IMG/VR virus record: IMGVR_UViG_2516143071_000006
Direction: 5' to 3' (one strand)
DNA: 62,764 nt
Origin: a virus
Taxonomy: Duplodnaviria > Heunggongvirae > Uroviricota > Caudoviricetes
Shown: one piece after another, positions 5,956 through 46,833 of the stretch
How positions within the stretch are numbered: position 1 is the first letter of the stretch
How the letters are laid out: every line of letters starts with the position of its first letter
Notes under the pieces: model-generated
Databases searched by the model: none
What the model was told of the DNA's origin: nothing
What the model saw: only the letters and a program-made list of their open reading frames with translations
Translations under genes and position numbers: made by a program

Positions 5956-6231
5956 CTAGCCTGAAGCATTTGCAATTGTAGTGGCTGCCATTTCGATCGC
6001 ACTGATTGTTTTTGCGATTTGCCGCTGGGGGTAAAATAGTTCACCTGCATGGAGATTTGATGCCGGGGAATTGTGGGGAGCATTCAAACCTCTCCCCTTC
6101 CCGGTTAAAGACTCCATTGCTTTGCGGTCAGAGAGATACATCAGCTTCATCAGCTTAATGAAACGCATAGATCCGCCATGCTTTTTCAGCAAATACGCTG
6201 CCATTTGCGCAACTTTTTCTTCATTAAACAT
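5956..6231 (-). CDS. Hypothetical protein; N-terminus loosely resembles Panacea/SocA-like phage-associated proteins, possibly truncated
   Basis: 91-aa ORF, N-terminal MRFIKLMKLMYLSDR pattern; weak RBS. Confidence 0.25.
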   Translation of the reverse strand: MFNEEKVAQMAAYLLKKHGGSMRFIKLMKLMYLSDRKAMESLTGKGRGLNAPHNSPASNLHAGELFYPQRQIAKTISAIEMAATTIANASG

Positions 6232-6354
6232 AAATCGGCTCTCTGTCTCACATGAAATACTCTTTCTGACTATATGTTAATAGCTCCGGTTATTACAGGT
6301 TAATGTGTGTTTATTTCTTAATCAGCCCCGCACTTCCGTACGGGGCCATTTCTG

Positions 6355-9300: not shown

Positions 9301-12300
9301 GTTGATTTCCAGGCGCGACCGGACAGCCTTCATGTGTACCGCTGACACCACCGGATCACCATTTTTATCCACGGCATCAAGCAGCATCACAACCGCGTTT
9401 CTTTCTGTCGCGGAACGGTAAATTGCATCCGGATCGTGCATCAGTTCCGGTAGTCTCTCGATAACATCCATCGGCACCACATGTTTCACACCATTGGTGG
9501 CCTTACGCACAGTGTCGCGGGAGATAACCAGCGGCAAATCTGGTGCGCCAAGGTGACGCAATACCGGCGGCGTACGCCCGATGTTTACCGTTAAATCCGT
9601 TGAGCGCAGAGACTTCATCATTCTGGCAAGGTCATCACGATAACGCTCGCCCTCACCTTCCGGCACTTTGAACGGATCAGGCTTACCGCTACGGGAGTAC
9701 TGAGACGATGCGTCCGCGCCATCCTCACGCGGCGTGTAACCTTCCCGCACACGCTGGCCTAACGTGCGAATAGTTTCGCGAACAAGTCTGATATCGTTCA
9801 GTTCCGTCGGCTTCAGTAACCCCGTACGACGCAGTACCCCTTTGACCAGGGCAACAACACGCTCCCATGCCGCCACGAATTTAATCGGCTGCTTCTCTGC
9901 CATATGCGCCAGAAATTCACCCGCCTGCACTTCCGGTGATTCCTTACCATAAGACGCATCAACCTTACGCCAGACTTCACGGATGGTGGCGTTATCACTG
10001 TCACGGGTTTTCAGCACGGTCTTAATAATCGTCTGATATTCCGCTGGCGTGACTACATGCTCCATTGCATGGTGAATAATCTCGTGACGTAACTTCTCGC
10101 GAACGGTCCGCCCGTCAGGGATGTTATCCGCCACCAGGACAATTTCACGTTTATCCGGACGATAGAACGCGTGCACCTTGCCGTAACCGTCGAATGATTC
10201 ACCCGCCAGTGCTTCAGCCTCTTTCTGTGACTTCACCACGCGGACCTTCAGGTCACTGTCCTTAATGCCACTAATCACGCCACGGGCAACAGCTTCAACC
10301 TGCGGGACCGGACTGCCTTTGGCTTCCGCACTGCGGTTAACATCCGAAATCAGATTGCCTTCAGGTGTGCGGGTCACGCCCTTACGGGAATAAAACTCAA
10401 CTCCCTTGTCCGTCTCACGGGTTTTCAGTGTTCGGAACAAGTGATCGAATGCCTCACGAATACCGCCATCCAGTTCTGCATTCGTCGGATAAGCGTAGGT
10501 GTCCAGCTGTCCATGGTCATCCGCCTTACGGATATTGACCAGATAATCATTCTCCACGCCAGCCATACGCGCTTTATCCTGAACATAACGCTCAAAGGCT
10601 CGCGCCGCCATTTCAACATCCGTTGACCAGTACGGTTTTGAACGAACGCCATCCAGGCGTTCAGAACGACGCAACATGTCACTGCTGTTAATGGCTTTCA
10701 TCACGCCTTTAAACGCGTCGTAAACCTCCTGACGTACCGGATATTCCGCATCAACATACCTGCCGTCTTTAAATACGCGCCCGGCACGCTGTGCTTCCGT
10801 CATATAGTCGCCACCTGACGTGATCTTCCCGTCAGTGGAAACATCATAACGACCAAAATAATTATCCAGTGAATGGAACCATTCGTGGGCCAGCGCCCCC
10901 GGTCCGTTACCTTTTGTCAGGTTGATTGCCACCTCACCCGGCTCATAGTGTGCCGCCGCCTTACCCTTACCACGGGCACCAAAAGCAAGCCCAAGACGAC
11001 CGTTCAGAGAAAGCGCTTTTGTCGGCACGTTCAGCACGTCAGCCAGGTCATGCAGCGAGTCATAAGCCCGGTTCAAATCAGCCTGACGACGCGGACTTTC
11101 CACATAATTACCAAACTGCACACCACGAAAACCAAACGCATCACTGAACTGCTCCGGCGAAACATCCCCCTTGCGGCGTTCTGGTCCGGTACGATCGCGG
11201 TTGGTGGCGTTACGCTGCTCCTCACGCGAGACTTCACGCAGCGCCTTCACCTGATTAACCAGCTCATCACGATGTGTGCGCACATAATCATGTGCATCAC
11301 GGGCAGACTCAAAACCGCCCTTCAGTTTCTGCCTGTTTTTGCCATAACCGATAAAAATGTCGCCACTGGCCTTATGCCGGTACACGTCAAAGGTTATTCT
11401 GTCATCAGCAGAGGTTGCTGGCGTTTCCCTTTCTCTGGAGCCTTGTTCATCGAAATATGCTTTCGCCTTTTTCAGTAACTCATCCCGGCTTTCCGAGAAA
11501 AAGAGGTCGCGCCCCTTGCTATCACGAAGCGAATACATCATTTGCGGCGGATCGTAACGTTTTCCCCCGACAAACGAATAAACACCGGACCTGACACGAT
11601 AGCCGGATGCTTTATCAATCTGCAATGCAGAAAGCGTACGGAGCAGTTTCCAGGTATCCGACATGCTCCGTAACCCCGGCTTACTGTCCATCATATCAGC
11701 CAGTTTCGCTGCCGGAATTTTCCCCTCCAGCATACCGGCAGTAGCTTCGCGACCGCTTTTAACAATGCTGATCCATTTCTGCATGTTACGGCTTGTTCTG
11801 GTGGGAATTTCACTGCGATACAACGCCATCATTGCCAGCGTGTCACTATCCACACCTTCTTTTTCCAGACGGGCATAATCCGGCTTTGGAAACAGTTTGC
11901 TCAGTGGTTGTGTCGCGTACTCCCCATCCTCCAGCGTTTTACCCATAGCTTCAGCAAGCTGCGCATAACGGTGTTTTGCCGCGCCCTTAATCTCCTCGCC
12001 AAAGTCTTCAATTTTCGCACCACGCACCTGCTGGTGAGTGCTCGGTTTATCTACCGGCACCGGCACCTCAGTATCCGGAACATCGGTTATGGTCTGGCGA
12101 TTATCCCCGGTCTGTCTGCGTGCTTCTGCCTGCTGTGCCAGTTCCGGAAGGGAGTCACGAACCATACGAGGGAGTGATTCAGGCTGTGGCATATCAACCC
12201 CACGCTGACTTTCAGGTGCAGGAAGTCCTTCACGCACTGGTGCTGTGGCGTTCTGCTCATCCGGTGACGGCAGACCACGACGAACTGTTTCGCCCTCCAG

Positions 12301-14706
12301 TATTTCCCCCTGGCGACCAGCGGCATTTTCCGGTGCCTGCTCACGTCCTTTCTGGAAACTCTGGCCCTTCACCTCACCGGTTGTGGTAAAACGACCACCA
12401 CGTCCGGCCTGATTTTCATCCGGCGTACGCGCCACTTCTCCTGGTAACGGATATCCCTGTCCGGGATGAATATCGCCGGGAGCGGGAAGGCGTGGACGCT
12501 CAGTTAACTCCTGTGCTGTCGGACCGGCATCACCTTCAGCCATCTGGGAACGCACCAGTTCTTCCGCCGTCGGCGCGTTGCCACGGGCAAGACGGGCCTG
12601 CACTTCTGTATCATCCCCCGTAAAACCACGGAATCGCGGGTCACGCATGAACGCGGGCTGTTCCATCGGATCAGCATCAGTAATACGCTCTCCGTCAGCC
12701 AGAGTGTTAATGGTCTCCGTTGCCACATCTTCAGAGAACGCAGGATTATCCATTTCAACGGCATACTGATTCTCGCCTTTCTTCACTACGGACGGTTTCA
12801 GGCCGGTGGCGCTGGCATTGCGGAAAACGTCGCTCCCCAGAGCACTTTTTTCATCCGTGAAATAACGGTTGTCCGGACGCACCTTTTCAATGCGTTCTGC
12901 TGGTCTGGACGCACCACTCTCGTTAATTTCAATACGAACTTCATCCGGATCGCGGAACCGCACCGTCGGGTAAATACTCCCGTCGCCATCATCCGCATTT
13001 TCCGGCTGTGGCTGTGCCTCCGGTCTGGCCTCCCGCTGAGGGCGAAGCACATCACGTATTGCCTGTAACTGCTGCTCTTCAGTATCAGTACGCCCTTCCT
13101 TCTGGCTGAGTTTTCGGTATTCCTCAAGCAGTTCAGGGCGCGGCTTCGCCTTCAGCTCATCCATCACCGCCTGTCGCTTCGCCTGTTCATCCAGTTCATT
13201 CAACAGCTGGCTGGCGGCTTCCCGGCGATGAACGGCAGACGTGTCTCCCTCATGTGCCATATCCGCATCAGCATACTGTTCCAGAAGCTGCTCGCGATTC
13301 ATCCCCTGCATAGATTCACGATGCTGTGCCACCGGATCAACCGGTTCGGGTTGCGGAGCCGATTCGTCCTGAGGAACGCTTTCAGCCTCACGCATGGCTG
13401 CTTCATCTGCCGCCTGACGTTTTCCACGATATCCGGCAGCCGCACCGAATGGTGCCCCCATTGCAGCACCAAGGGCTGCACCTTCGATCGTTGCGTCAGC
13501 CACGCCCTCCCACGGTGACACATCCATTCCGGCGGTCTCACGCAATGCCGTGTTTTCCTGATAGCGTGAATAGCCACCCTGCGCCGCATTAATCGTCCCC
13601 TGTTCCGTGGCATTTCTGACAATGCCGCTTTTAACGGTCTTCGCCGTGCCCCGCATCGCCAGATTAAGCAACTGAGCATCGCCCAGTTTTGCCGCCATGG
13701 CATTCACAGCCAGCAATTCAGGATCGGTTGCCAGTTGCGCACGCACCTCATCGGCAACACGCTCTTTTGCCAGGTCCATTTTCTGGCGGTCAGTAAGCTG
13801 CGCGTGCTGCGGATCTGCATCAATTGACAAAAAGGTCTGCTGAAATTTCGGTGACTTCGCCAGCTCAGAATAATCCGCGTTAAGAACAGCATCTGCCGCT
13901 GCCATTGCACTCCGCCCTTGCGCACTGACAGTGGAATGGGTGATCAGGCCTGCCTGGAAAAAATCCGGCATTTTTTTATCGACAGCTTCGGCTGCCAGTG
14001 CTGTGGCTCTTTCCGGCTGCATCCCTGCCGCGATGTATTTTTTCTCCAGCCCGGCGGTCAGCACTTTTCGCAGAGTGACATCACCCAGCTTTTTAGTCAC
14101 ACCGCCTGCAACCATATCCGGTACAAGCGCACCAATCAGGTTAACCCCTTTCGCTACCCAGACCGCTGAATCATCATATCCTTCAGTCATCGGTGTATTC
14201 AGCGCCCGCTGCGCCCCCGGCGACATCTTGCCAGTCAGCCATTCATCCGAGGCTTTAGCGCCGCCACTGACTGCCTTGCCTGTGACCTTCAGACCTTTAC
14301 CGACAGTATCAGTAACCGCATTTTTTCCATCAGGCAGAGTGTCGATGACCTCATCCGCCCCCTTGCTGCCACCGACAAAAATATCCTGAACAGTTGCTAC
14401 TCCCGGCAGCCCCATACGGCTGAACTCATTTAAAATACGTGCCCCTGTTTTTACCGGGCTCTGAATCATCGCATCACCGAGTCCACGGGCCATTTCCCCT
14501 GTCCCCCGGACGGACTGGGCGACACCTTTCCCCATAGTTGGCAATACATCGCCCAGGCTGAACGACGTGCTGTTGTCCTTCCAGCGATTGGGATCGGAGA
14601 AAAACACATCATAGCTGTCAGTCTCTCCCGGCTGCTGAATGTTCAGGCTGTTGCGGCTCTGGTTGCCAAATTGCGCTTCAGGGCGCTGTTCATCGGAATA
14701 AGCCAT
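6355..14706 (-). CDS. Giant 2783-aa phage protein with a zincin-like HEXXH motif; likely virion-associated polyvalent or ejected protein
   Basis: Uninterrupted 8.35-kb ORF at the distal end of the late gene block; ALAHEWFHSLD motif; long low-complexity acidic and Pro/Gln-rich linkers. Confidence 0.85.
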   Translation of the reverse strand: MAYSDEQRPEAQFGNQSRNSLNIQQPGETDSYDVFFSDPNRWKDNSTSFSLGDVLPTMGKGVAQSVRGTGEMARGLGDAMIQSPVKTGARILNEFSRMGLPGVATVQDIFVGGSKGADEVIDTLPDGKNAVTDTVGKGLKVTGKAVSGGAKASDEWLTGKMSPGAQRALNTPMTEGYDDSAVWVAKGVNLIGALVPDMVAGGVTKKLGDVTLRKVLTAGLEKKYIAAGMQPERATALAAEAVDKKMPDFFQAGLITHSTVSAQGRSAMAAADAVLNADYSELAKSPKFQQTFLSIDADPQHAQLTDRQKMDLAKERVADEVRAQLATDPELLAVNAMAAKLGDAQLLNLAMRGTAKTVKSGIVRNATEQGTINAAQGGYSRYQENTALRETAGMDVSPWEGVADATIEGAALGAAMGAPFGAAAGYRGKRQAADEAAMREAESVPQDESAPQPEPVDPVAQHRESMQGMNREQLLEQYADADMAHEGDTSAVHRREAASQLLNELDEQAKRQAVMDELKAKPRPELLEEYRKLSQKEGRTDTEEQQLQAIRDVLRPQREARPEAQPQPENADDGDGSIYPTVRFRDPDEVRIEINESGASRPAERIEKVRPDNRYFTDEKSALGSDVFRNASATGLKPSVVKKGENQYAVEMDNPAFSEDVATETINTLADGERITDADPMEQPAFMRDPRFRGFTGDDTEVQARLARGNAPTAEELVRSQMAEGDAGPTAQELTERPRLPAPGDIHPGQGYPLPGEVARTPDENQAGRGGRFTTTGEVKGQSFQKGREQAPENAAGRQGEILEGETVRRGLPSPDEQNATAPVREGLPAPESQRGVDMPQPESLPRMVRDSLPELAQQAEARRQTGDNRQTITDVPDTEVPVPVDKPSTHQQVRGAKIEDFGEEIKGAAKHRYAQLAEAMGKTLEDGEYATQPLSKLFPKPDYARLEKEGVDSDTLAMMALYRSEIPTRTSRNMQKWISIVKSGREATAGMLEGKIPAAKLADMMDSKPGLRSMSDTWKLLRTLSALQIDKASGYRVRSGVYSFVGGKRYDPPQMMYSLRDSKGRDLFFSESRDELLKKAKAYFDEQGSRERETPATSADDRITFDVYRHKASGDIFIGYGKNRQKLKGGFESARDAHDYVRTHRDELVNQVKALREVSREEQRNATNRDRTGPERRKGDVSPEQFSDAFGFRGVQFGNYVESPRRQADLNRAYDSLHDLADVLNVPTKALSLNGRLGLAFGARGKGKAAAHYEPGEVAINLTKGNGPGALAHEWFHSLDNYFGRYDVSTDGKITSGGDYMTEAQRAGRVFKDGRYVDAEYPVRQEVYDAFKGVMKAINSSDMLRRSERLDGVRSKPYWSTDVEMAARAFERYVQDKARMAGVENDYLVNIRKADDHGQLDTYAYPTNAELDGGIREAFDHLFRTLKTRETDKGVEFYSRKGVTRTPEGNLISDVNRSAEAKGSPVPQVEAVARGVISGIKDSDLKVRVVKSQKEAEALAGESFDGYGKVHAFYRPDKREIVLVADNIPDGRTVREKLRHEIIHHAMEHVVTPAEYQTIIKTVLKTRDSDNATIREVWRKVDASYGKESPEVQAGEFLAHMAEKQPIKFVAAWERVVALVKGVLRRTGLLKPTELNDIRLVRETIRTLGQRVREGYTPREDGADASSQYSRSGKPDPFKVPEGEGERYRDDLARMMKSLRSTDLTVNIGRTPPVLRHLGAPDLPLVISRDTVRKATNGVKHVVPMDVIERLPELMHDPDAIYRSATERNAVVMLLDAVDKNGDPVVSAVHMKAVRSRLEINKVASVYGTENGKKLKSMEMTGLTLYRREKLSRDNLLHRGLQLPKGEHSYRGSVDKILYPEDIRKGPYYSRTSSLTPEETIASRFVRQMQDKFQVLKAVQENIRKTGGKIDDSNNAYMAEELFHGKAENDLNVMKERYVQPLAKLLADYKIAQADLDEYLYARHAPERNAHIAKINPKMPDGGSGMTNAEAAEIMQRVRNSGKQAQYDRLAGIIDDMLARRREIIREAGLEESGVVDAWQKAYRYYVPLKGQDVDGVVSQPRTGKGFTIGGRESKQAMGRASRAQSPSTQAIQDLSESLIRNRKNEVGNAFLKLVQDNPDKDYWQVFTDDRPDTMRVIAERKDQETGETIREVVERPVPMAMMADRYFTTKKDGKTYYIKLHDPRLMRAMKNMGPETSNAVIRTLGKVNRFLATVNTSYNPEFLVSNFIRDVQTAVMNLKAEQGRSDGKLKGLDNLSALAVVKDSRSAMSAVYASLRGKTLTGKGAQWQKVWKEFVEDGGKTGWFNMGDLEGQQKEMDRLVSLAKGGWKGQSIGAWHSFLNLVEDANGAVENALRLSAYKHARDAGLSRQQAASLAKNMTVNFNRRGEQGALMNSLYMFANASIQGTANLVRTLGHLNGDGPLLERLRWKNLNVPQKIALAAVGAGYLLGSLNRSVAGEDDDGVNWYDKVPYHVKERNLVIMKSMFGGRAGEYWSIPLPYGYNVFFLLGHTSEGVAAGDLTASRAAGNVVGGILGAFSPIGSETSETLSGALLKNAAPTILRPFANLAMNENFMGAQIYQENMPFGTPKPDSQLGRRSTPEAYKAFAFWLNAFSGGSQYRPGAVDITPESLKFWIDYISGGTGRFISKTTDAAVKSLNGIDIPEQQVPFLGKISGEVMPYADQQKMYDRMTEVAQYHAELKSLTGAERTAFIDENNGKLLMNGLMQDTRKRLKDLRKQRDAIYADSSLSLAQQAAMVKSVERDMKVAVDRFNREYNKKVGVD

Positions 14707-34483: not shown

Positions 34484-35270
34484 CCAGTCTCCCCGAATTA
34501 CTCATTTCATGCAGCGATGACACGATGTCACTGACAGGCGTAACAACGCCCCGACGCTGGCTGGTCAGAATATCGGTTTCCGCTCTGAGTTTATCTCTGG
34601 CAGCGTTGGTTCTTTCCCGGTCAGCACGAAGTTTTGGTGCTGTTTCAGCCAGAACGTCCAGCGTCAGCAATGAGCGTTCAATTGACTCGATACGGGCAAT
34701 ATTCCGGTCAAGGGCCTGTTCAGCTTTGAGTATTTTGTCGTAAAGAGCAACGCGGGTTTCCACGTCAGTTGCCTCTTCCAGGTCGGCGAACATCCCTTTA
34801 AGTGCCTTAGTTACTGAAAGTGCGCGGGCCCGGGTGAACACCAGTTCATCGAACAGCACCATGTCGGACGCATCATCCATGAGGTTATCTGCCTCAAGAT
34901 ACTTCGCATATCCACGGTGTCTTACGGCGTGGGTGTTTCGCTGAGAAAAAGCGTTTGAAGGTGGTAAAAGTCGGGAACCACGAATCCGTTTCGTTTCTGC
35001 CGAATTTGCGCAGTTTTTTTCAGAGTTTTTTGCGCATTTTTCATCGCCGGAACCCGCGTCATTGCAGGGTTCTTCATCTGAGATGTCATGATCGATTTCA
35101 TGATCGGTTTTATGATCAATTTCATGATCGATTTTGCCCATTTTTATACGGGTTCTGGCGGTGTTGTAATTAATCTTTTTCTTCCGGCACCAGTCCAGTA
35201 ATGTTATTCCCGTTTCGGCATGTTCGCGTCGGAATGCCTGCTCCAGCTTTTTCCAGTCCAGCTTTGCCAT
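34464..35270 (-). CDS. Terminase small subunit (putative)
   Basis: 268-aa ORF upstream of TerL; HTH-like N-terminus; contains a DHEIDH tandem repeat. Confidence 0.55.
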   Translation of the reverse strand: MAKLDWKKLEQAFRREHAETGITLLDWCRKKKINYNTARTRIKMGKIDHEIDHKTDHEIDHDISDEEPCNDAGSGDEKCAKNSEKNCANSAETKRIRGSRLLPPSNAFSQRNTHAVRHRGYAKYLEADNLMDDASDMVLFDELVFTRARALSVTKALKGMFADLEEATDVETRVALYDKILKAEQALDRNIARIESIERSLLTLDVLAETAPKLRADRERTNAARDKLRAETDILTSQRRGVVTPVSDIVSSLHEMSNSGRLDDIPEE

Positions 35271-35562
35271 GTCACTTTCTGACGTCCTGTGTTAAAAACT
35301 GATGCATAATGACCGCTGTGATTTTTCAGATTTCACACAGCAGCACCATATTTGATCGATATTTGCACAATGCGGTTGTTTTATCCGGTTTCTTCCACCA
35401 CCGCACCGGACAGGCGGCTTCGCGGGAAATCGCTCCCATCTCGTGAAAAATGAGAAAACCCGGTGTGCATCGTTTTTGATTATCCCCGCACACTCACGCA
35501 GATAAGGTGGCTGCAGTCTCTGTTAATGCGGGAATACGGCGACGATACGGCGCATGGCTATG

Positions 35563-36114
35563 TCAGGCTGAAATGCCTTTATCAAATCCGGGTAACGCAA
35601 TCTGCCCCTGCTGCTCCAGCCTGTCCAGCCTTGCCAGCAACTGAGGCTTCTTCACCCTGCCCCAGCGATTGAGCAAACGACCTGACATACTGGCGACATC
35701 TTTCTCTTTCATGTACTCCAGCATTACAGCGTTGCGCTCCGCCTCCAGATTCGCCAGACCTTGCTGAATAAGCTCAGCCATCCAGTTGAAAGCCTGAATG
35801 TACGCTTCCTTAAAGGTCATAGCAGCCTTCCCCGTAAAACCAAATACCAACATCGTCCAACCGTCTTTTGTCATTCGATATATGGGCTGGGGTTTACCGT
35901 TCTGTAACTCATTGTTTTCATAGCAAAGCGCAAAATTGCGCTCTGCAAATTCTTTTGAGCATTGTTGAACAACGGCTCTTGTTTTCCGCAATACATCTTT
36001 GTGTTCTTTGCCAAATGCTACGGCAACCTTTCGGGTATCCGTCACCGGCTCGTTGCCTGTCACAAAAACAAGATCTCGAAAATCGATGCCGTTAACGATA
36101 GTTGGATAATTCAT
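35563..36114 (-). CDS. Rha-family phage regulatory protein
   Basis: MNYPTIVNGIDFRDLVFVTGNEPVTDTRKVAVAFGKEHKDVLR N-terminus. Confidence 0.65.
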   Translation of the reverse strand: MNYPTIVNGIDFRDLVFVTGNEPVTDTRKVAVAFGKEHKDVLRKTRAVVQQCSKEFAERNFALCYENNELQNGKPQPIYRMTKDGWTMLVFGFTGKAAMTFKEAYIQAFNWMAELIQQGLANLEAERNAVMLEYMKEKDVASMSGRLLNRWGRVKKPQLLARLDRLEQQGQIALPGFDKGISA

Positions 36115-36316
36115 CAGTGCACACCTTTTAGTGATGAACCTTGTCACACAGGATTCCGGCCCACAGAAAGGCACCGATCACCAAACCGGCATCCTCAAGG
36201 GTCATCCTGAAAGGTTCTGTGTTCATAAGTCGCGCGTGTGAAGCGCGTTTACTGCGGACATAAAAAAGCCCCGTATCGCGAGGCTCATTAAATTGACTTT
36301 GTGATTTGCAAAAAAA

Positions 36317-36745
36317 TTATTTCAGGCATTGCGTCCTGATGTATTCCTGCAGGTAGTTAACCTGCGCAGTTATCTTGTCGATTCCACTTCTGAGACGGTA
36401 ATAATTGAGTTCAGCATCTGCTGTAAGTCCTGGGCTTTCTCCATCGCCCATGCTGCTGGCTCCGGTCGTTGACTTTGCACAGGTGGCGGCGACTTGCAGG
36501 CGCTTACGCCCAGCAGAAACATCAGCACGGAGACTTTCGATAGTCGCATTAGCATCAGCAAGCTCCTTTGTGTATCTGGCGTCAAGTTCTGCTACATCAC
36601 GTTGCCGCTTCTGCATATCTGCGATGATGGATGTGGCTTTATCGCGCTGCTCTTTGTAAGCGATGGCGTTATCACGGTAATGATTCAGCCCCAGACTAAG
36701 CGCACCACAGACCACCAGCAGAATAACGGTAAACGCGGAAAGCAT
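36317..36745 (-). CDS. Rz: Rz i-spanin
   Basis: N-terminal TM helix then NHYRDNAIAYKEQRDK...YTKELADA, closely resembling lambda Rz; start could be the upstream GTG. Confidence 0.75.
   Translation of the reverse strand: MLSAFTVILLVVCGALSLGLNHYRDNAIAYKEQRDKATSIIADMQKRQRDVAELDARYTKELADANATIESLRADVSAGRKRLQVAATCAKSTTGASSMGDGESPGLTADAELNYYRLRSGIDKITAQVNYLQEYIRTQCLK
36370..36555 (-). CDS. Rz1: Rz1 o-spanin lipoprotein, embedded in Rz in another frame
   Basis: Signal plus lipobox (LLGVSAC) followed by a Pro-rich stretch (KSPPPVQSQRPEPAAW). Confidence 0.55.
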   Translation of the reverse strand: MLMRLSKVSVLMFLLGVSACKSPPPVQSQRPEPAAWAMEKAQDLQQMLNSIITVSEVESTR

Positions 36746-36905
36746 TCGGTTTATGCTCACCCCACCAGCCCTGCCGAAGTCAACGCCATCCAGTTTATGG
36801 AAAGAAAAAGAACAACCAGCATTAGTGAAAATGAAATACCGACGATTACACAAAGGCCCTTCGCCAGCGTTATGAGTTTATCCGATATCATTAGCCACCA
36901 CTCCA

Positions 36906-37475
36906 TCAATCCGCCTTTGTTATTTTCCCTTTGCCTGTATCAGCCAGGACAAAATCAATCAGCAGATTCGCTTCGTTTATCAATGTGCGGATTTTTGATA
37001 CATGCGCGGCTTTAACCTGTTTCCACTCATTCAGCCCGGTAGCAAACACACTGGCAATGTTTTTATCCCGTTTCATGTCAGCGCAGGCCTGATTGAGTTC
37101 TTCCATCACACTCATTCGACGGGGATTAACGACACCCCCCTTCGTCCAGTATTCATAGAGAACATCGTCGCACTCTTCCTGATACTGGATTACCTTGTCG
37201 CGGATTTCGGGTTTTACTTTGTTGGGATTGATGGTTTGTAACCAGCCTGCAAGTTTTCGAAGTGGCAGGGACACCATATTGCGTCGTTTCCCATCCTCAG
37301 CAACCATAACGATTTCCGTTATAGTTGACGCAAAACGCTGTCTTAACTTAGCCAACTGTGATTGCCAGGCCAGCCCCATCCCCGCAACGACAGGTTTCAT
37401 GGGAACGTATGGCTCACCGTTATGGTTAACCACATAAAGAGAATCGCCGTGAAACGGCACGGTCATCATATTCAT
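36906..37475 (-). CDS. Phage antirepressor-like protein (P22 antirepressor N-terminal type)
   Basis: MTVPFHGDSLYVVNHNGEPYVPMKPVVAGMGLAWQSQ motif; sits between R and Rz. Confidence 0.55.
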   Translation of the reverse strand: MNMMTVPFHGDSLYVVNHNGEPYVPMKPVVAGMGLAWQSQLAKLRQRFASTITEIVMVAEDGKRRNMVSLPLRKLAGWLQTINPNKVKPEIRDKVIQYQEECDDVLYEYWTKGGVVNPRRMSVMEELNQACADMKRDKNIASVFATGLNEWKQVKAAHVSKIRTLINEANLLIDFVLADTGKGKITKAD

Positions 37476-37748
37476 CGGTTATTTCCTTTTAGTGATGAAC
37501 CCTGCGCACAGGAATAACCAGCCCAAAGAGGGTTAACCAGACCACTGCCGGTTATCCACCAGGGCTCATCCTGAAAGGTTCTTTGGTTTATTTACGCTTG
37601 TGCGAAGCGCAGAAATGACAAAGACACCATTACGGTGCCTCAGCGTGAAACAATCTTCCTGACTTTATTCACTTGCATTTTGCCAGTTCGCAGGATTTCG
37701 TGTTATCCGTCCGCGTGAGCAAACGTCATTTTTCAGCAAAATATTCTG

Positions 37749-39170: not shown

Positions 39171-41081
39171 TTATGCGGCTGCTCCAGCTTTGTTTGCTTT
39201 AACTTCCACCGTATCAATAAGTACAGGGTAGGTTTCTGCACTACCTGTAATATCCGTAATGACAAACCTGTTGAGTCCATTAGCAGTATTGGCCCATTTC
39301 ACCAGGTCAAACGCCTGTCCATCCACACCATCGAGCACCGGAGTAACATTAATGCTGTTACTGCCCTTAAATTTAAATGCAAGCGTATGCCAGTCATGGT
39401 CGAATGCGCCAAACGTGCCAAGTTCTTTTTGTTGATTAACTGTATGATGGTATGCAACATTAATACTGGCTTTATCTGTCTGGACAAAGAAAGAACTCAG
39501 ATGGCCTTCACCACCCTCACCCGGCCATTCCGCTATTCGCCAGTACAAACCAAAGGCATACTTGTTTCTGGTTGTCTCAAGATTGACGTTTTCGGGGATT
39601 TTAAACCGGACAGCAATTTCCCCGCCTTTTTCCAGTAAAAGTTTTGCCTTGTCTGCAGCAATATCACAGTACATTGACCAGGATTTCGCGCTGTTATTTT
39701 TCTCAATTCGCAGAGCTTTATTGCCGCTGTCATCAACCAGTGTGCGCCTGCCATACACACCGTCCCAGCCATAGGGTTTCAGCTGATTGTCTGTAGCTTT
39801 TTTGGCATCGTAAAAAATTACAGACTCTGAGGTGGTAACCGGTCTGTCTGGAACAACCACCCCGGCAGTACCATTAACAAACGCAGAAGACTTACCCGCG
39901 CAGCTCAGAATCGCAGTTGCCAGACGGTCGGAAATAATCCCACGGCGAGCCCATGAACTGAAATGGCTCGCCCTGTCCTGTGACGTCCAGGTGGCTGAGC
40001 TGTCACGCCATTTCGAACCGTAATAACCGATACCCGGAATGTCCGGGTCTTCTTCCGGTTTGTTCGTCGGCACATTCACCCCGTTCTCATCGGTCATGAA
40101 CGGTACGAAATGGATATTCTTTTCCGTTTTATTTTTATAGCTGCCGTACACCGTCTGGTACGTGGATTCGTTCTTCTGCTTCCAGAAATACGTCGTGTCC
40201 CCGCATATCCAGGGAACACCGCCAGCAGAGCCACCGACGCACTGGCCTGCCATATCCGCCAGGTCTGCACGGAATTTATCAACCAGCGCACCAAACTGTG
40301 CGGCATGATTTGCCGGCGTACCGCCAAAATCAAATTCCCCCTGCATCCACACCACGGCAAACAGCACATTTTTCGGGTTCTTCTCCAGTGCCGCTTTTGT
40401 TCGACCGATAAGGTCCTTATACAGCGGCTTGTCCACACCCCAGCGGGTTGAATTCTCCGAGGCGCCACTCGCGTCACTGTATGTGCCATCAGCTCCGGTG
40501 GTGAACGCTGAACCACCACGACAGCACGGAACCAGCAGAATGCCCGCATTCGCCGGTATAAACGGCAGCAGTTTTTTGGCGATATGCAGCCCCTGCCCCA
40601 CGGTTCCGTACTGCCCCTTTGACAGGTCCGCTTTCGGATGGTTAAGACGGCTCATGTCCTGCACATCATGCAGACAATGGTCCGCCGGAATGATGTCGTT
40701 ATATTTGCATGCTGCACCGCCCGGTGTCACCGTACTGCGACGCGCTAACTGTTTAATACGTGGATCAGGGCTGTCGAATGTATCCGGTAATGGCAGTCCC
40801 TCACCGTATGACATACCATTGGACTGACCAGCAAGCGCGATCACATAGTAATATTCTGGCGCAACAGAAGGCGCTGAGGTCGTCGGACGGTTGCCTGGCT
40901 CCTCTGGTGATGAGATGCTCCCCTCACTCACAACTGGCTGGATGAACTCCGCACCATAACCAGCTGTCGAAATCAGCGCACTACCATAAGGCTGCCACCC
41001 TTCCTTCAGTTTTTGAGTTATTCGTTTCGCAAGGTCTGACGGCGACGCCGCCCTGACAACATCATAGTGTTTAAATGCCAT
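39171..41081 (-). CDS. nanS: NanS-p-type sialate O-acetylesterase (DUF1737 N-terminal domain plus SGNH esterase)
   Basis: MAFKHYDVVRAASPSDLAKRITQKLKEGWQPYG N-terminus and GQSNGMSYG esterase motif; located between Q and S. Confidence 0.8.
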   Translation of the reverse strand: MAFKHYDVVRAASPSDLAKRITQKLKEGWQPYGSALISTAGYGAEFIQPVVSEGSISSPEEPGNRPTTSAPSVAPEYYYVIALAGQSNGMSYGEGLPLPDTFDSPDPRIKQLARRSTVTPGGAACKYNDIIPADHCLHDVQDMSRLNHPKADLSKGQYGTVGQGLHIAKKLLPFIPANAGILLVPCCRGGSAFTTGADGTYSDASGASENSTRWGVDKPLYKDLIGRTKAALEKNPKNVLFAVVWMQGEFDFGGTPANHAAQFGALVDKFRADLADMAGQCVGGSAGGVPWICGDTTYFWKQKNESTYQTVYGSYKNKTEKNIHFVPFMTDENGVNVPTNKPEEDPDIPGIGYYGSKWRDSSATWTSQDRASHFSSWARRGIISDRLATAILSCAGKSSAFVNGTAGVVVPDRPVTTSESVIFYDAKKATDNQLKPYGWDGVYGRRTLVDDSGNKALRIEKNNSAKSWSMYCDIAADKAKLLLEKGGEIAVRFKIPENVNLETTRNKYAFGLYWRIAEWPGEGGEGHLSSFFVQTDKASINVAYHHTVNQQKELGTFGAFDHDWHTLAFKFKGSNSINVTPVLDGVDGQAFDLVKWANTANGLNRFVITDITGSAETYPVLIDTVEVKANKAGAAA

Positions 41082-41274
41082 GAATCCTCCCGGCCGGGAT
41101 AATATTGTGAGTAAAATAAGGAGCGGGCTGAAGTCCGGAAGTTACAGGACAATGGCAGAAGGGAGACTACAGCCCGCAATTCGAAAAAGGTCGCGCAGTT
41201 GCGCAGAGTGATTACTATGGGGTATTATTCGCCAGCTGAAATATTACTTCACGTTTCATTGTTCATTCCTTGCC

Positions 41275-41304
41275 GCCCGCGTCTCCCAGCGCGGGCTTTT
41301 TTGT
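41275..41304 (+). terminator. Hairpin plus T-run in the Q-nanS gap, followed by a second hairpin at 41315..41332
   Basis: cccgcgtctcccagcgcggg then cttttttg. Confidence 0.35.
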
Positions 41305-41565
41305 CCATAAGAAAGCCCCTCCGGAGAGGGGCTGGAGAGTGGCGCTATGTGCCATTGCATGGTGCCGGGTGCCTCCCGGTGAGTTCAGCCCGGTGCCACT
41401 AAACCCGCGTCATTCTCGTTTTGATAATCAGAGATTATACCGTCACCAGTCGCCCCTCCGCTCAGGGGGATTCACCATGCAGTTTTTTCTAACAAATTCT
41501 CATCCGGGCAGACAACATTCAACTGACTTAATTGTGAGGTATGTAACATTCCCGTTGAACGGATA

Positions 41566-41597
41566 CAAAAAAAGCCAGCCACCAGGGGAGGCTGGCA
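41566..41597 (-). terminator. Late-operon terminator candidate (tR'-like)
   Basis: Minus-strand gccagcctcccctggtggctggc followed by uuuuuuug. Confidence 0.45.
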
Positions 41598-41775
41598 AAC
41601 TCGTAGAGCAAAATGCTGTTACGCAAACTTCGTTACAGGGTTATCCTGCAATACTTAAAATATACAATATTTAGAAAACTAATAGTGCCATATGAGATTT
41701 TTAAGATTTTGTTATTAATTGCGGTCGTACCTTCCTTTCTGTGTACTTTCCGTATAGCTCACAGGATTCTGGGTA

Positions 41776-41800
41776 CAAAAAAACCCGCGCATCGGCGGGT
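41776..41800 (-). terminator. Second intrinsic terminator candidate about 50 nt downstream of the Q stop
   Basis: Minus-strand cccgccgatgcgcggg followed by uuuuuuu. Confidence 0.4.
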
Positions 41801-41846
41801 TCGGCTGCGTGGCAATGTAACCACTCTTATCATGATATGCAGATTT

Positions 41847-42380
41847 TTACGATCGTAAACTATTTTTTCGCTGATAAAATACAGAGCTTCTCCCTCCCGG
41901 CAATTCACGCTCAACATACCGATCCATCTCAAGCCTCACTCCCAGCATCATCAGCATGCCTTCAACAATCCCCTCCGCTTTGTGAAGGCGTTTACCTATA
42001 CAGGTGTCAGAGCACCCATGTTTCCGTGCCAGCGCCATGAACGTCTCCCCCAACACGTAGTAATCAACCAGCAAGTCATGCAGATCGCGATTGTTCCGGT
42101 AAAGGCGGGCTATGCACCCGCATATCACCATCGCATCATCGTCACAGCACTGTGGACGTGATTTTACTTTTTCGGGGATCAGTCCCTTAAATCCGGCAGC
42201 AATGGGCGACCATGTAACATCCTCATAGTTATTTACCGCCCATGCCCCCCAGCGCTCAAGAACCTGCCGGATATCACGCATCAGTATCTTTACCCCATCC
42301 GCGATGAACCATAAGGACGCCATTGACGACGGCGTGCTTTTTCGCATCTTTATCATCAATGTATTTTCTGACTGTAGCAC
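41847..42380 (-). CDS. Q: Late antiterminator Q (non-lambda type); true start probably an internal Met near 42281
   Basis: Position after the nin genes and before the late terminators and lysis genes; Cys-rich region; overlaps ninH end. Confidence 0.65.
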
Positions 42381-43793: not shown

Positions 43794-44465
43794 TCAGAAT
43801 TCAAATTGTCTTGCCCGCAGGCTTTTCAGCATTGGCATGGCCCGCTGGATAATGGAACTTGACATGTCGAGACGTGTTACCTCCCTTAGTAGCGCGTCTC
43901 TGTTCTTCGTCACCATGTAGATGGTCTCAAACGCAATGTCATACAGCTTGTTCGTGTATGAGGAGTTCAGCTCTTTCATAATGGGATACAGGTGTTTGCT
44001 GAGGTCCTGGGCTTTTTCCATCCAGAGCTGCATGTAGCAAAGGAGGATGATTTCTTCGGCTGTGAATTGTGGCTGAATCTGCGGCTGCTGTTCGGTTGGT
44101 GCTGTTTTTCCCTGGCTGAAATAGCAGTCTTCCAGTTTTTCGAATACCTCCCACGCCTGATCAGTTTCGAGCATTTTTGCGTGACGGGCTGCGCCGCGTT
44201 CTGTCCATAGGATGAGGGAGCGAACGTTACGGGCAATTTTCACAGAGTAGTTAAAAGCTACTCTGTGCTTGAACTCACGTAAAGTTTCACCTTCAAGTTT
44301 GAAGAAGTGTTTTTCCTCAATGAAACGACCTTTGTTTTCGTGGTGATTCTGGCGAATACGAATAGCTTCTGTGCCGTAAAGGTGCGCCAAAAGTTCGGTA
44401 GTGATAACGGGGATCTGCTTGTAAGTAATCGTGGAGAGTGTTTCAACAGAAACTTGAGTTGTCAT
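43794..44465 (-). CDS. Phage antirepressor (ORF6N/KilA-N-type N-terminus), C-terminus shared with 2929..3564
   Basis: ITYKQIPVITTELLAHLYGTEAIRIRQNHHENKGRF motif; shared QPQFTAEEIILLCYMQLWMEKAQ...RARQFEF tail. Confidence 0.7.
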   Translation of the reverse strand: MTTQVSVETLSTITYKQIPVITTELLAHLYGTEAIRIRQNHHENKGRFIEEKHFFKLEGETLREFKHRVAFNYSVKIARNVRSLILWTERGAARHAKMLETDQAWEVFEKLEDCYFSQGKTAPTEQQPQIQPQFTAEEIILLCYMQLWMEKAQDLSKHLYPIMKELNSSYTNKLYDIAFETIYMVTKNRDALLREVTRLDMSSSIIQRAMPMLKSLRARQFEF

Positions 44466-44809
44466 AATGACGCCCTCGAGTGGTTTCTAAACTATCACCA
44501 CCGTCAGGTTCCTAATCATCGGGTGGCGAGACGTACAGGGTTAGGAACTACCGGGAAACCAACCGGCGAGCTTTTCAGCTCCCCTATACGCCCCACCATA
44601 ATTCAGATGTGCGTGTGCATACGACAATAAAAAACACGCTCGCGGCGTGTCTCTGTCGCGGTTTCTATCCGGGGTTCCTAATCCCGACGCCAGATTTTGC
44701 TGGCGTGCGATGAATATAATCCCGGATACGCGACGTTGTCAAACTGATGGCATTGCAGATCCCTACGCAATGTAACACTATGTGTTATACATTAATAACG
44801 GAACAAAAA

Positions 44810-45117
44810 ATGCGCATTTTTAAAAACGCCTGGTTTGAGCGACTTGCACGCAAAACAAAATATCCGACCAATCACTGCGCGAAATTGTTAAACAGGCTGA
44901 TAACGGGCTTATCTCAGCAAACCTGGGTAACGGCGTTATCAAGCAACGTCTGCCACGAGTCGGTGGCGGCAAATCTGGCGGTTATCGCACAATCATTTTC
45001 TATCGCGTCGGCACAAGGGCCTTTTTCGTATATGCATACGCAAAAAATGAACGTGAAAATATAACCGCTACTGAGGAAAGTGCATTTCGGAAGGGGCTCC
45101 TCACGTACTCAATCTAA
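44810..45117 (+). pseudogene. RelE/ParE/HigB-like toxin interrupted by a +1 frameshift in an A-run
   Basis: Frame 1 reads MRIFKNAWFERLARK; frame 3 continues QNKISDQSLREIVKQADNGLISANLGNGVIKQRLPRVGGGKSGGYRTIIFYRVGTRAFFVYAYAKNERENI...; junction at aaaa 44852..44855. Confidence 0.6.
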
Positions 45118-45171
45118 CAGATGAACAACTGGCACAACTGATTCTACAGGGTCAGTTTACGGAGGTACCCA

Positions 45172-45489
45172 ATGAGTAAAAATTACCGCAGTGATGCGCT
45201 TGCATCCGTACATGAAATGATGGAATCGCTTCATGATATCGGCGCAGTAACGAAACAGACTATGCGAGAATTCGATGAAACTTGTCTCCAGCCAGCGCCG
45301 GTAATGTCTCCGGAAAGGATCCGTGCACTGCGCGAACGAGAGCATCTGTCTCAACCTGTTTTTGCCAGATACCTCAACGTCAGTAAAAACCTGATATCAG
45401 ACTGGGAACGTGGTGTAAAACGGCCGGGAGGTGCCGCTCTTCGCCTTCTTTCAGTCGTAGAGAAAAACGGAATCCAGGTAATATCATGA
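45172..45489 (+). CDS. HTH (XRE-type) antitoxin-like protein, HigA-like partner of the upstream toxin
   Basis: 105 aa, C-terminal HTH (LSQPVFARYLNVSKNLISDWERG); immediately downstream of the toxin reading frame. Confidence 0.65.
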   Translation: MSKNYRSDALASVHEMMESLHDIGAVTKQTMREFDETCLQPAPVMSPERIRALREREHLSQPVFARYLNVSKNLISDWERGVKRPGGAALRLLSVVEKNGIQVIS

Positions 45490-45499
45490 TACTCCAATA

Positions 45500-45530
45500 C
45501 AACAAAACCCGCCGAAGCGGGTTTTCATTA
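45500..45530. terminator. Bidirectional terminator between convergent genes
   Basis: acccgccgaagcgggt hairpin flanked by A-run and T-run. Confidence 0.5.
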
Positions 45531-45539
45531 GAAGCACCT

Positions 45540-46025
45540 TTAGTTTTGCTGTTCTATTTTAAGCTTGATAGTTTCATACAAAACAATAGTTGCGCCTGTT
45601 TTACATAATTCCCGGCTGTCATACGCACGAGACCAATAACACAACCAGTTCTCGAGATCTTCTCGAGTATAGGTTTTGCAGGCCAGTCCCTCTGCCATTT
45701 CCACGATTTCATCGCCTGGTGCTGTTAACTCATAGCCATTCAACAACAAGAAGACATAACCAGCCATCATAGCTGTTCGTTTGTTTGCATTAGCAAATGG
45801 ATGATTCTGAATCAGACTTTCAATCAATACTGATGCCAGTACAAACATGTCATTAGTCTGTTCATACCATCGAACCATGCTGGGACGAGACTGAGAAGAA
45901 CTTAAATTATCAACACTCAGCACACTAACAGGTTCATCTGGTGTTTGAAGCTCAATTAAAAGGCGATTAATTTCGGTAAGATCATCAAACGAAAGGTAGT
46001 GCACTCCTTCAACAATCTCAGCCAT
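45540..46025 (-). CDS. doc: Fic/Doc-family toxin
   Basis: HPFANANKRTA motif (HPFxxGNKR type). Confidence 0.7.
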   Translation of the reverse strand: MAEIVEGVHYLSFDDLTEINRLLIELQTPDEPVSVLSVDNLSSSQSRPSMVRWYEQTNDMFVLASVLIESLIQNHPFANANKRTAMMAGYVFLLLNGYELTAPGDEIVEMAEGLACKTYTREDLENWLCYWSRAYDSRELCKTGATIVLYETIKLKIEQQN

Positions 46026-46043
46026 AGAGCACAATACCCATCA

Positions 46044-46268
46044 TTACACTTTTGAAAGTTCTTCCATTGCCTTCTCGTAACGAGAAAAACCGAAATCGAA
46101 AGCATTTTTCACCTGCTCACGATGAGTGCAATTTTCATCGATAGCCGGGCGCGGAGCTGCCACAACGCTTTTATCGCGAGGGGGAATAGTCAATCGCGGG
46201 TGTTTTTTTAGTGCGTAGCTCATTGGGTGTACCCTTACTTCTCCGTCCTGTTCTTTAACAAAAATCAA
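46044..46268 (-). CDS. Putative antitoxin for the Doc-like toxin
   Basis: Small ORF 10 nt upstream of the toxin on the same strand; no family assigned. Confidence 0.4.
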   Translation of the reverse strand: MIFVKEQDGEVRVHPMSYALKKHPRLTIPPRDKSVVAAPRPAIDENCTHREQVKNAFDFGFSRYEKAMEELSKV

Positions 46269-46341: not shown

Positions 46342-46364
46342 GAAAAAACCCGCCGAAGCGGGTT
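46342..46364 (-). terminator. Intrinsic terminator downstream of hok
   Basis: Minus-strand acccgcttcggcgggt followed by uuuuuuc. Confidence 0.5.
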
Positions 46365-46432
46365 AAGTGCGGGTGCGTTGAGGATGCCTGACACATCAGA
46401 GGTGGCGAGGGATTTCTCCCTCGCCGGGTCTC

Positions 46433-46588
46433 TTACTCCTCAGGTTCGTAAGCTGTGAAGACAGCAACCTCCGTCTGACCGGTTCGGATTCGTACCTCGC
46501 AGAGGTCTTTCCTCGTTACCAGTGCCGTCACTACGACGGTAATACAGATGACGATCAGGGCGACTAACATCGCCTTTTGCTGCTTCAT
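46433..46588 (-). CDS. hok: Hok-family type I toxin (HokD/RelF-like); an in-frame upstream extension to 46645 is mok-like
   Basis: MKQQKAMLVALIVICITVVVTALVTRKDLCEVRIRTGQTEVAVFTAYEPEE is near-identical to HokD/RelF as remembered. Confidence 0.8.
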   Translation of the reverse strand: MKQQKAMLVALIVICITVVVTALVTRKDLCEVRIRTGQTEVAVFTAYEPEE

Positions 46589-46833
46589 AGCCTGCTTCTC
46601 CTTGCCTTTCGGCGCGTAAGAGGCTAACCTACATGTGTCTAGCATGAAATTGGCCTCAGATTAATGTTAGGCGTCTTGCAGGACGCGTAATGTTAACTGG
46701 GGTTTTTCTCTGTCTGCCTTACGGTGGCATGCCCGAGGCAGACAGCCTCAAGCACCCGCAGCAATTCTACTTAACTCTCGCTTTACCGCAAACCGTTTTT
46801 ACCCGATATGGGAATTCCCATATCGTAATGAAT

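Follow-up and report, generated by a model that had tools for sequence, protein, structure and literature searches.

Two single-nucleotide deletions split a HigB2-type toxin gene beside an intact antitoxin gene in a lambdoid prophage

The HigB2/HigA2 toxin–antitoxin (TA) system of Vibrio cholerae is located in the superintegron. Its toxin gene comes first, followed by the antitoxin gene (PDB 5JA8, 5JA9, 5JAA, 5J9I; PMC5416850), and Arg64 of the toxin is a catalytically important residue that is flipped out of the active site upon HigA2 binding (PMC5416850). Toxins of the Pfam family PF06296, which carry the names HigB2, RelE or StbE, were described in a recent survey as ribosome-dependent mRNases encoded in toxin-then-antitoxin order (PMC11980606).

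The locus described here lies in a viral record of 62,764 nucleotides (IMGVR_UViG_2516143071_000006), the whole of which is referred to as the window. It spans from ynfF-like host sequence to an integrase and represents a lambdoid, Stx-phage-like prophage with cI/cro/cII and NinB/NinE/RusA/NinH/Q, which also carries a nanS-p-type esterase, a holin, a lysozyme, a terminase, a portal protein and a 2783-aa LPD38-domain protein; no tRNA genes were found in the window. The module occupies the accessory slot of the nin region, where three toxin systems are adjacent to one another, namely the broken module itself, a Doc-family toxin and hokD/sok. We read this locus, with a probability of roughly 90%, as a type II TA module of the HigB2/HigA2 kind whose toxin gene has become a pseudogene. 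The toxin gene is made up of the following parts:

44810, plus strand: native toxin start ATG, read from the sequence.
44810-45179, plus strand: the whole broken toxin gene, from its frames and from alignment to intact alleles.
44810..44855, plus strand: toxin piece 1 in frame 0, MRIFKNAWFERLARK, the native N-terminus, with a profile match from position 1.
44852..44855, plus strand: frameshift 1, a 1-nt deletion giving AAAA against AAAAA in intact alleles, from alignments and repair translation.
44856..45117, plus strand: toxin piece 2 in the -1 frame, the core NKISDQ...GGGKSGGYRTIIFYR...KNERENITATEESAFRK, matching PF06296 positions 18-95 (E 3.7e-28).
45093..45096, plus strand: frameshift 2, a 1-nt deletion between 45094 and 45095 giving GGGG against GG[C/T]GG or AGCTG in relatives, from alignments.
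45096..45179, plus strand: toxin piece 3 in the third frame, APHVLNLTDEQLAQLILQGQFTEVPNE, ending with TAA 45177-45179 and matching PF06296 positions 97-120.

The toxin is split over three frames by two real 1-nt deletions. The first-pass annotation of this DNA had described a single-base frameshift, and its ATG at 44810, its frame-0 peptide, the AAAA run at 44852-44855 and the -1 continuation to KNERENI are right in both coordinates and peptides; the second 1-nt deletion, at 45093-45096, was overlooked. It had further proposed that an AAA run would restore the frame, and here the direction of repair has to be reversed: removal of one A leads to stops throughout, whereas the intact homologues carry AAAAA and the addition of an A restores the frame. 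Since there are two frameshifts, repair of the A-run alone would still yield a toxin without its C-terminal 27 residues.

Piece 1 is the same as the N-terminus of the intact homologues except for an F/L change. When frame 0 is translated onward it gives an 84-aa product that ends at the stop codon 45062-45064 and is native over its first 15 residues only. At this first site, intact close relatives read CGC AAAAA C AAAA T, compared with CGC AAAA C AAAA T in the window. The -1 frame after the A-run reads ...NKISDQSLREIV...GGGKSGGYRTIIFYR...KNERENI, its full reading past 44852-44855 being NKISDQSLREIVKQADNGLISANLGNGVIKQRLPRVGGGKSGGYRTIIFYRVGTRAFFVYAYAKNERENITATEESAFRK, and the ORF listing gave no ATG, GTG or TTG start in this middle frame that leaves 20 or more codons. 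The tail of piece 2 consists of seven out-of-frame codons followed by TAA 45115-45117, the premature stop of the middle frame. At the second site the window has AAGGGG, compared with AAGGCGG, AAGGCTG or AAAGCTG in intact close relatives and AAGGTGG in phage PhiR12_3, which is intact at site 2 only. Frameshift 2 puts the last 27 codons (45096-45179) into the third frame, in which piece 3 is the same as the C-terminus of the intact homologues and overlaps the antitoxin start in ATGAGTAA. Conceptual repair with one additional A and one additional C gives a 123-aa protein that differs by 2 residues from the toxin of strain 2013C-3033.

The repaired toxin matches PF06296 (PF_RelE/HigB2 type) over positions 1-120 of 120 with 155.9 bits (E 6.4e-46). 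Without repair, the pieces map onto the family in order, the frame-0 product from position 1 (its nominal span of 1-34 includes the out-of-frame part), then positions 18-95 and then 97-120. Because the repaired product scores far above the curated cut-off of 27 bits, the resemblance of the three pieces to PF06296 is, on these profile matches, not one of chance. A RelE/HigB-like toxin read across both frames as one protein family, followed by an HTH partner, was also what the first-pass annotation had proposed, and it is borne out by PF06296 for the toxin and by HTH_3 together with similarity to V. cholerae HigA-2 for the antitoxin. The toxin-then-antitoxin order with an HTH antitoxin downstream is present, the toxin stop (45177-45179) overlapping the antitoxin ATG (45172); in place of an uninterrupted ORF encoding the PF06296 domain, the window has two 1-nt deletions and a core that lacks a canonical start. 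The window toxin is classed, from these features, as a pseudogene member of PF06296. Arg60 of the repaired protein, within GGYR, aligns with position 64 of HigB-2 chain 5ja9_C, and its codon is kept, but inside the untranslatable middle piece. Among solved structures, V. cholerae HigB-2 (E 0.004) is closest to the toxin and HigA-2 (E 8e-8) to the antitoxin. NCBIfam gave no model matching the toxin, PADLOC gave no defence-system model for the toxin and generic HTH matches only for the antitoxin, and the Rfam scan found no RNA family within either gene.

Relatives of the region 44700-45560 (861 bp) were found in 270 complete Escherichia coli genomes, in all cases on the chromosome, while the phage collection gave one match to it (PhiR12_3, from ECOR13) and the plasmid collection none. 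All 861 bp recur at 100% identity in 17 complete genomes of the E. coli O104:H4 group, each assembled independently; among these are isolates of O104:H4 from 2009 and 2011 as well as reference-material strains and laboratory derivatives. Elsewhere the window is 99.3-99.6% identical to O104:H4 2011C-3493 and has a replaced 2.6-kb block (35018-37664); as it differs in this way from those O104:H4 assemblies, the double-frameshift allele exists in more than one prophage background. A literature search for O104:H4 together with this TA system found nothing. Uninterrupted 372-nt (123-aa) toxin genes are annotated both in a close lineage of about 96-99% DNA identity (2013C-3033, SCU-104, HCP4S3_I4 and JNEC-KY203) and in a distant lineage of about 77% (O145 RM9872 and E423). 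In alignments, the intact homologues have exactly one nucleotide more than the window at each of the two sites, so that the comparison with intact homologues, which the first-pass annotation had suggested as a check, reveals the loss of 1 nt at both.

Lesion states were compiled for 38 close-lineage genomes. Those of FORC_069, PhiR12_3, PS2Canimalfeces12, LZHX12, 23CRST047, 2013C-3033, SCU-104 and HCP4S3_I4 were read directly from alignments, the intact state of JNEC-KY203, which lies outside the alignment, was taken from its annotated 372-nt toxin CDS, and the states of the remaining close-lineage genomes were deduced from match lengths. Frameshift 2 was read from alignments in O104:H4 (L001) and 23CRST047, as was its absence in the FORC_069 group, PhiR12_3 and all intact alleles; in AST198, cM8a and NMBU-W12E19 it was deduced because 195 nt of the 3' half match at 100% identity. 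The states were as follows:

Toxin intact: 2013C-3033, SCU-104, HCP4S3_I4 and JNEC-KY171/177/203.
Frameshift 1 only: FORC_069/043/029, NCCP15648, NCCP 13905/13983, ML35, TOE17, PS2Canimalfeces12, LZHX12 and phage PhiR12_3.
Frameshifts 1 and 2: the 17 O104:H4-type genomes, AST198 and cM8a (the last two from match lengths).
Frameshifts 1 and 2 plus an IS66 insertion: NMBU-W12E19 (frameshifts from 100%-identical matches).
A5 intact, with frameshift 2 and a further A3-to-A2 deletion: 23CRST047 and 23CRST049.

The IS66-family insertion of NMBU-W12E19 is 2757 bp long and is accompanied by an 8-bp duplication of window positions 44936-44943. The toxin of 2014C-3097, which belongs to the 77% lineage, is split by a G4-to-G5 insertion that arose independently, and a doubled toxin annotation like that of 2014C-3097 is seen in at least five other sampled genomes. 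Altogether the toxin shows five different kinds of lesion, and the antitoxin is whole throughout the strains examined. Because 23CRST047 has frameshift 2 without frameshift 1, either the A-run would have mutated more than once or alleles would have recombined. Judged from these independent lesions in different relatives, decay of the toxin is both progressive and recurrent.

The same relatives bear on the question of whether the gene is really intact and bases were simply missed by sequencing or assembly at the A-run and G-run homopolymers. Both lesions now sit inside 4-nt homopolymers, where some platforms drop bases, but 17 complete genomes, obtained from separate isolates by different laboratories, agree at 100% over the 861 bp, and the A4 allele also turns up in unrelated strains and PhiR12_3. 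NMBU-W12E19 matches at 100% across both sites and hence has both deletions, and it carries the IS66 insertion too. Moreover, the base lost at site 2 was a C or T rather than a G from a G-run, and since this base was flanked by GG on each side, site 2 is not a homopolymer-length miscall. On these comparisons the probability of an error is negligible, and we regard this explanation as excluded. The first-pass annotation had left two alternatives, an inactivated toxin with an orphaned antitoxin or a homopolymer sequencing error; the former stands and the latter is dropped in view of the 17 identical genomes.

A second explanation takes the deletions as real and the gene as still in use, with -1 slippage producing a low level of toxin and the frameshift serving as an attenuator; in this scheme A_AAA (44857-44860) is where tRNA-Lys would shift, and G_GGG (45093-45096) where the ribosome would have to do so again. 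Both shifts are -1, and a P-site tRNA could re-pair one base back at each site, yet neither site has an X XXY YYZ heptamer (the frame-0 codons at site 1 are CGC AAA ACA AAA TAT and the middle-frame codons at site 2 are CGG AAG GGG CTC), and the window would need two independent slips. The allele with frameshift 1 only fits this idea and can be read as a sign of maintenance, since its reading frame is otherwise clean and at least 13 records (12 genomes and one phage) carry it. However, the family does not conserve the shift, as alleles that keep the frame are present among relatives of 96-99% identity and also in both distant lineages. Frameshift 2 and IS66 also pile up on frameshift-1 alleles, as neutral decay predicts. 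We consider recoding very improbable.

A related view, to which we likewise give very little credence, holds that the A4 allele is not dead but in a leaky and reversible 'off' state. Where frameshift 1 is the only lesion, a minor share of cells or ribosomes would then make full-length toxin, either because tRNA-Lys occasionally slips by -1 on A_AAA or because A4 reverts to A5 during replication, and if this were true the prophage would hold a stochastic, attenuated HigB2-type toxin. In the O104:H4 allele, this route is closed anyway by the second deletion.

The middle piece raises a further possibility, namely that an 85-aa protein starting from ATA 44860 is made and keeps some activity or antitoxin binding. 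RefSeq (PGAP) indeed lists it as an ordinary 85-aa CDS (WP_309487867.1, window 44860-45117) with no pseudogene flag, and PF06296 positions 18-95, with the conserved arginine of GGYR among them, fall within the piece; nevertheless, its product would be without the conserved N-terminal 17 and C-terminal 27 domain residues. ATA is a very poor initiator, and the preceding 15 nt (TGCACGCAAAACAAA) contain no Shine-Dalgarno motif. Besides, the PGAP start varies from allele to allele: FORC_069 and PS2Canimalfeces12 are given ATT, LZHX12 an internal ATG, and these models too lack a pseudogene flag. That PGAP picks a different odd start in each allele suggests that the RefSeq toxin models are homology-driven fits rather than real genes and starts, and we find a functional truncated toxin hard to credit.

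Unlike the toxin gene, the antitoxin gene is intact, as the first-pass annotation had it. It is presented below together with its ribosome-binding site and the neighbouring elements:

44771..44789, plus strand: imperfect palindrome TGTAACAC-TAT-GTGTTATA, 21 nt upstream of the toxin ATG, a candidate operator from conservation.
45161..45165, plus strand: GGAGG ribosome-binding site, 6 nt before the antitoxin ATG, read from the sequence.
45172..45489, plus strand: intact HigA2-like antitoxin of 105 aa with a C-terminal HTH, from HTH_3 and HigA-2 similarity.
45504..45525, no strand assigned: GC-rich hairpin AAAACCCGCCGAAGCGGGTTTT lying where the antitoxin and doc genes converge, from minus-strand detection.
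45540-46034, minus strand: Doc-family toxin, with an upstream 59-aa ORF of no known family.

The HTH_3 domain of the antitoxin covers residues 50-94 (E 1e-7), and residues 45-99 align to residues 39-93 of HigA-2 (5jaa_A; E 8e-8). Residues 1-44 gave no domain match and no alignment to HigA-2, which fits the HigA2 layout without proving it. The GGAGG in front of the gene would permit translation of the antitoxin uncoupled from the broken toxin. The antitoxin protein, WP_000042397.1, is the same in strains with intact and with broken toxins. Between lineages, dN/dS is 0.01-0.05 at a dS of up to about 1, and the antitoxin family is, by this measure, strongly constrained. Inside the broken-toxin clade there are 0-1 nucleotide differences, which gives no power to test selection after toxin loss. 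The toxins of PhiR12_3 and 2013C-3033 are 96-99% identical to that of the window, yet the dS of their antitoxins is about 0.75; toxin and antitoxin alleles have been shuffled between strains.

The palindrome block TGTAACACTATGTGTTATA (44771-44789), found by eye in the alignment and not reported by the inverted-repeat tool, is kept in the divergent O145 and E423 lineages, where its surroundings diverge. We propose that it is a putative antitoxin operator overlapping the promoter of the module. The promoter scan gave no consensus plus-strand promoter for the TA module, and for this reason both promoter and operator are put forward from conservation. What the scan did give is a divergent minus-strand promoter (44742 to 44713; TTGACA, 18 nt, TATATT), which is strong, lies 67 nt from the toxin ATG and heads an isrK / C4-antisense / ORF6N-antirepressor unit; the palindrome sits inside these 67 nt. 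On the other side of the module, the hairpin at 45504..45525, followed on the plus strand by TTTTCATT, is likely a two-way terminator.

Decay of the toxin beside an orphaned antitoxin is thus the reading that we favour. In its intact form, by homology with V. cholerae HigB2/HigA2, the module would encode a 123-aa toxin acting as a ribosome-dependent mRNA endonuclease and an antitoxin whose N-terminal segment neutralises it, with the C-terminal HTH of the antitoxin repressing the operon, probably through the conserved palindrome that directly precedes the toxin gene. The change from A5 to A4 at 44852-44855 and the loss of a C or T at 45094/45095 have broken the toxin, leaving the catalytic core without a usable start codon and the C-terminal 27 residues out of frame. 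Initiation at the native ATG would yield the 84-aa product, out of frame past residue 15, and active toxin is presumably no longer made. Because the stop of this 84-aa frame falls 107 nt before the antitoxin ATG, the original translational coupling through the ATGAGTAA overlap would be lost. The antitoxin has its own GGAGG and most likely continues to be expressed, now as an orphan HTH protein that represses itself.

The biological weight of this is small, since prophage TA modules are well known to end up as a toxin pseudogene next to an intact antitoxin. The practical consequence lies in annotation: RefSeq shows the broken gene of the O104:H4 lineage and those of its relatives as 'RelE/ParE family toxin' by way of ATA or ATT starts, and TA censuses built on such RefSeq annotations will overcount functional toxins. 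In addition, the alleles form a natural series for the order of TA decay and the fate of the orphan antitoxin, from intact through frameshift 1 and then frameshifts 1 and 2 to frameshifts 1 and 2 with IS66. By-products of the analysis are a corrected description of the locus, with two deletions and the opposite repair direction, and a pseudogene hidden by its annotation.

Compared with known systems, the locus is closest in kind to V. cholerae HigB2/HigA2, with which it shares the toxin-first order, the G-G-x-R-x-I-I-(F/Y)-Y and Y-x-K-N-E core of the toxin, an antitoxin of about 105 aa with a C-terminal HTH and, by analogy, the expected mechanism. The similarity of the toxins is distant (about 50 aligned residues at the E value given above), the E. 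coli protein adds a conserved C-terminal segment (LNLTDEQLAQLI...), and the window toxin differs from its V. cholerae counterpart in being a pseudogene with two frameshifts on a prophage. The intact E. coli alleles (WP_106894428.1 of 2013C-3033 and WP_001217944.1 of O145 RM9872) represent the same locus type in lambdoid prophages, lying between the ORF6N antirepressor/NinB side and the hokD/replication side, with the same 8-nt toxin/antitoxin overlap and the same or nearly the same antitoxin protein; they have an uninterrupted 123-aa toxin, whereas the window lacks one A and one C or T. A toxin pseudogene beside an orphaned antitoxin is an already known kind of locus and an ordinary way for TA pairs to decay. 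The repeated independent lesions of the toxin next to a whole antitoxin follow this generic course of decay in chromosomal or prophage type II TA modules, which lose the toxin first and are left with an orphan antitoxin, and nothing sets the locus apart from it except a reference annotation that carries no pseudogene flag.

The PF06296 (HigB2/RelE-type) toxin gene carries further lesions in relatives of the prophage. In E. coli NMBU-W12E19, whose toxin copy is a 100% match to the window at both frameshift sites, the gene is interrupted by an IS66-family element of 2757 bp (tnpA, tnpB and tnpC) with an 8-bp target duplication equivalent to window positions 44936-44943. In the 77%-identical lineage, a G4-to-G5 insertion in E. 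coli 2014C-3097 (toxin at 2501-2873 of locus L006) divides the toxin into annotated pieces of 40 and 85 aa, and is an independent lesion; the same doubled toxin annotation was found in at least five other genomes among those sampled.

None of the RefSeq records examined carries a pseudogene or frameshift flag on the broken toxin. PGAP, the pipeline behind them, presents it as an ordinary CDS in every allele, through an ATA or ATT start, an ATG inside the gene or an end cut short. Toxin-antitoxin counts based on annotation consequently come out too high.

PGAP CDS of the broken toxin, by RefSeq record
L001 (O104:H4), 6161-6418
L002, 3143-3481
L009, 653-991
L011, 695-991
L008, 621-935

Toxin and antitoxin alleles have been shuffled between strains. 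The toxin DNA of PhiR12_3, 2013C-3033 and SCU-104 is 96-99% identical to that of the window locus at 44810-45489, while the antitoxin genes of the same three differ from that of the window with a dS of about 0.75-0.8. This pairing of closely similar toxins with diverged antitoxins implies a recombination breakpoint close to where the two genes meet.

Immediately 5' of the toxin, and pointing away from it, lies a block on the minus strand (44519-44742) in which a promoter is followed by RNA elements; an antirepressor gene comes after the block.

Elements of the divergent block
44742->44713, minus, near-consensus promoter (TTGACA / 18 nt / TATATT) from a promoter scan
44666-44719, minus, c4-a1b1 target element (Rfam, slightly below its cut-off)
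44629-44706, minus, isrK (Rfam, 69 bits)
44519-44603, minus, C4 antisense RNA (Rfam, 66 bits)
43794-44465, ORF6N/P22AR antirepressor gene

Together, the block and the antirepressor gene look like an immI-like antirepressor control unit of the P1/P7 type. On the other side of the broken module, a Doc-family toxin gene is convergent with the antitoxin gene, and a hokD/sok system follows.

Features beyond the antitoxin gene
within 45540-46223, minus, Doc-family toxin gene with Fic motif (TIGR01550, E 1e-35)
46044-46223, minus, 59-aa ORF preceding the Doc gene (RefSeq 'hypothetical protein' WP_000119356.1)
46343-46424, isrK-like element (weaker, sub-threshold match)
46433-46757, minus, hokD toxin ORF with sok antisense RNA (sok match full-length, 110 bits)

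No model in Pfam, NCBIfam or PADLOC matched the 59-aa ORF, which may encode an uncharacterised antitoxin that takes the role of Phd as the partner of Doc. As the broken module, Doc and hokD/sok adjoin one another, three toxin systems of different types are adjacent in this nin-region slot.

Compared with its counterpart prophage in O104:H4 2011C-3493, the window shows 99.3-99.6% identity, except in a lysis/terminase-proximal block at 35018-37664, which has a 99.6% match at another prophage location in the same genomes. The source of the window is therefore a mosaic relative rather than strain 2011C-3493 itself. The architecture of the prophage is that of an Stx phage, with a Q antiterminator, a nanS-p-type SASA esterase (39171-42380 region) and an LPD38-domain protein of 2783 aa (6355-14706). 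The usual stx/tRNA cargo of such phages is absent here, since the gap between Q and the esterase gene (within 39171-42380) spans merely ~770 bp and no tRNA genes were found across the whole window.
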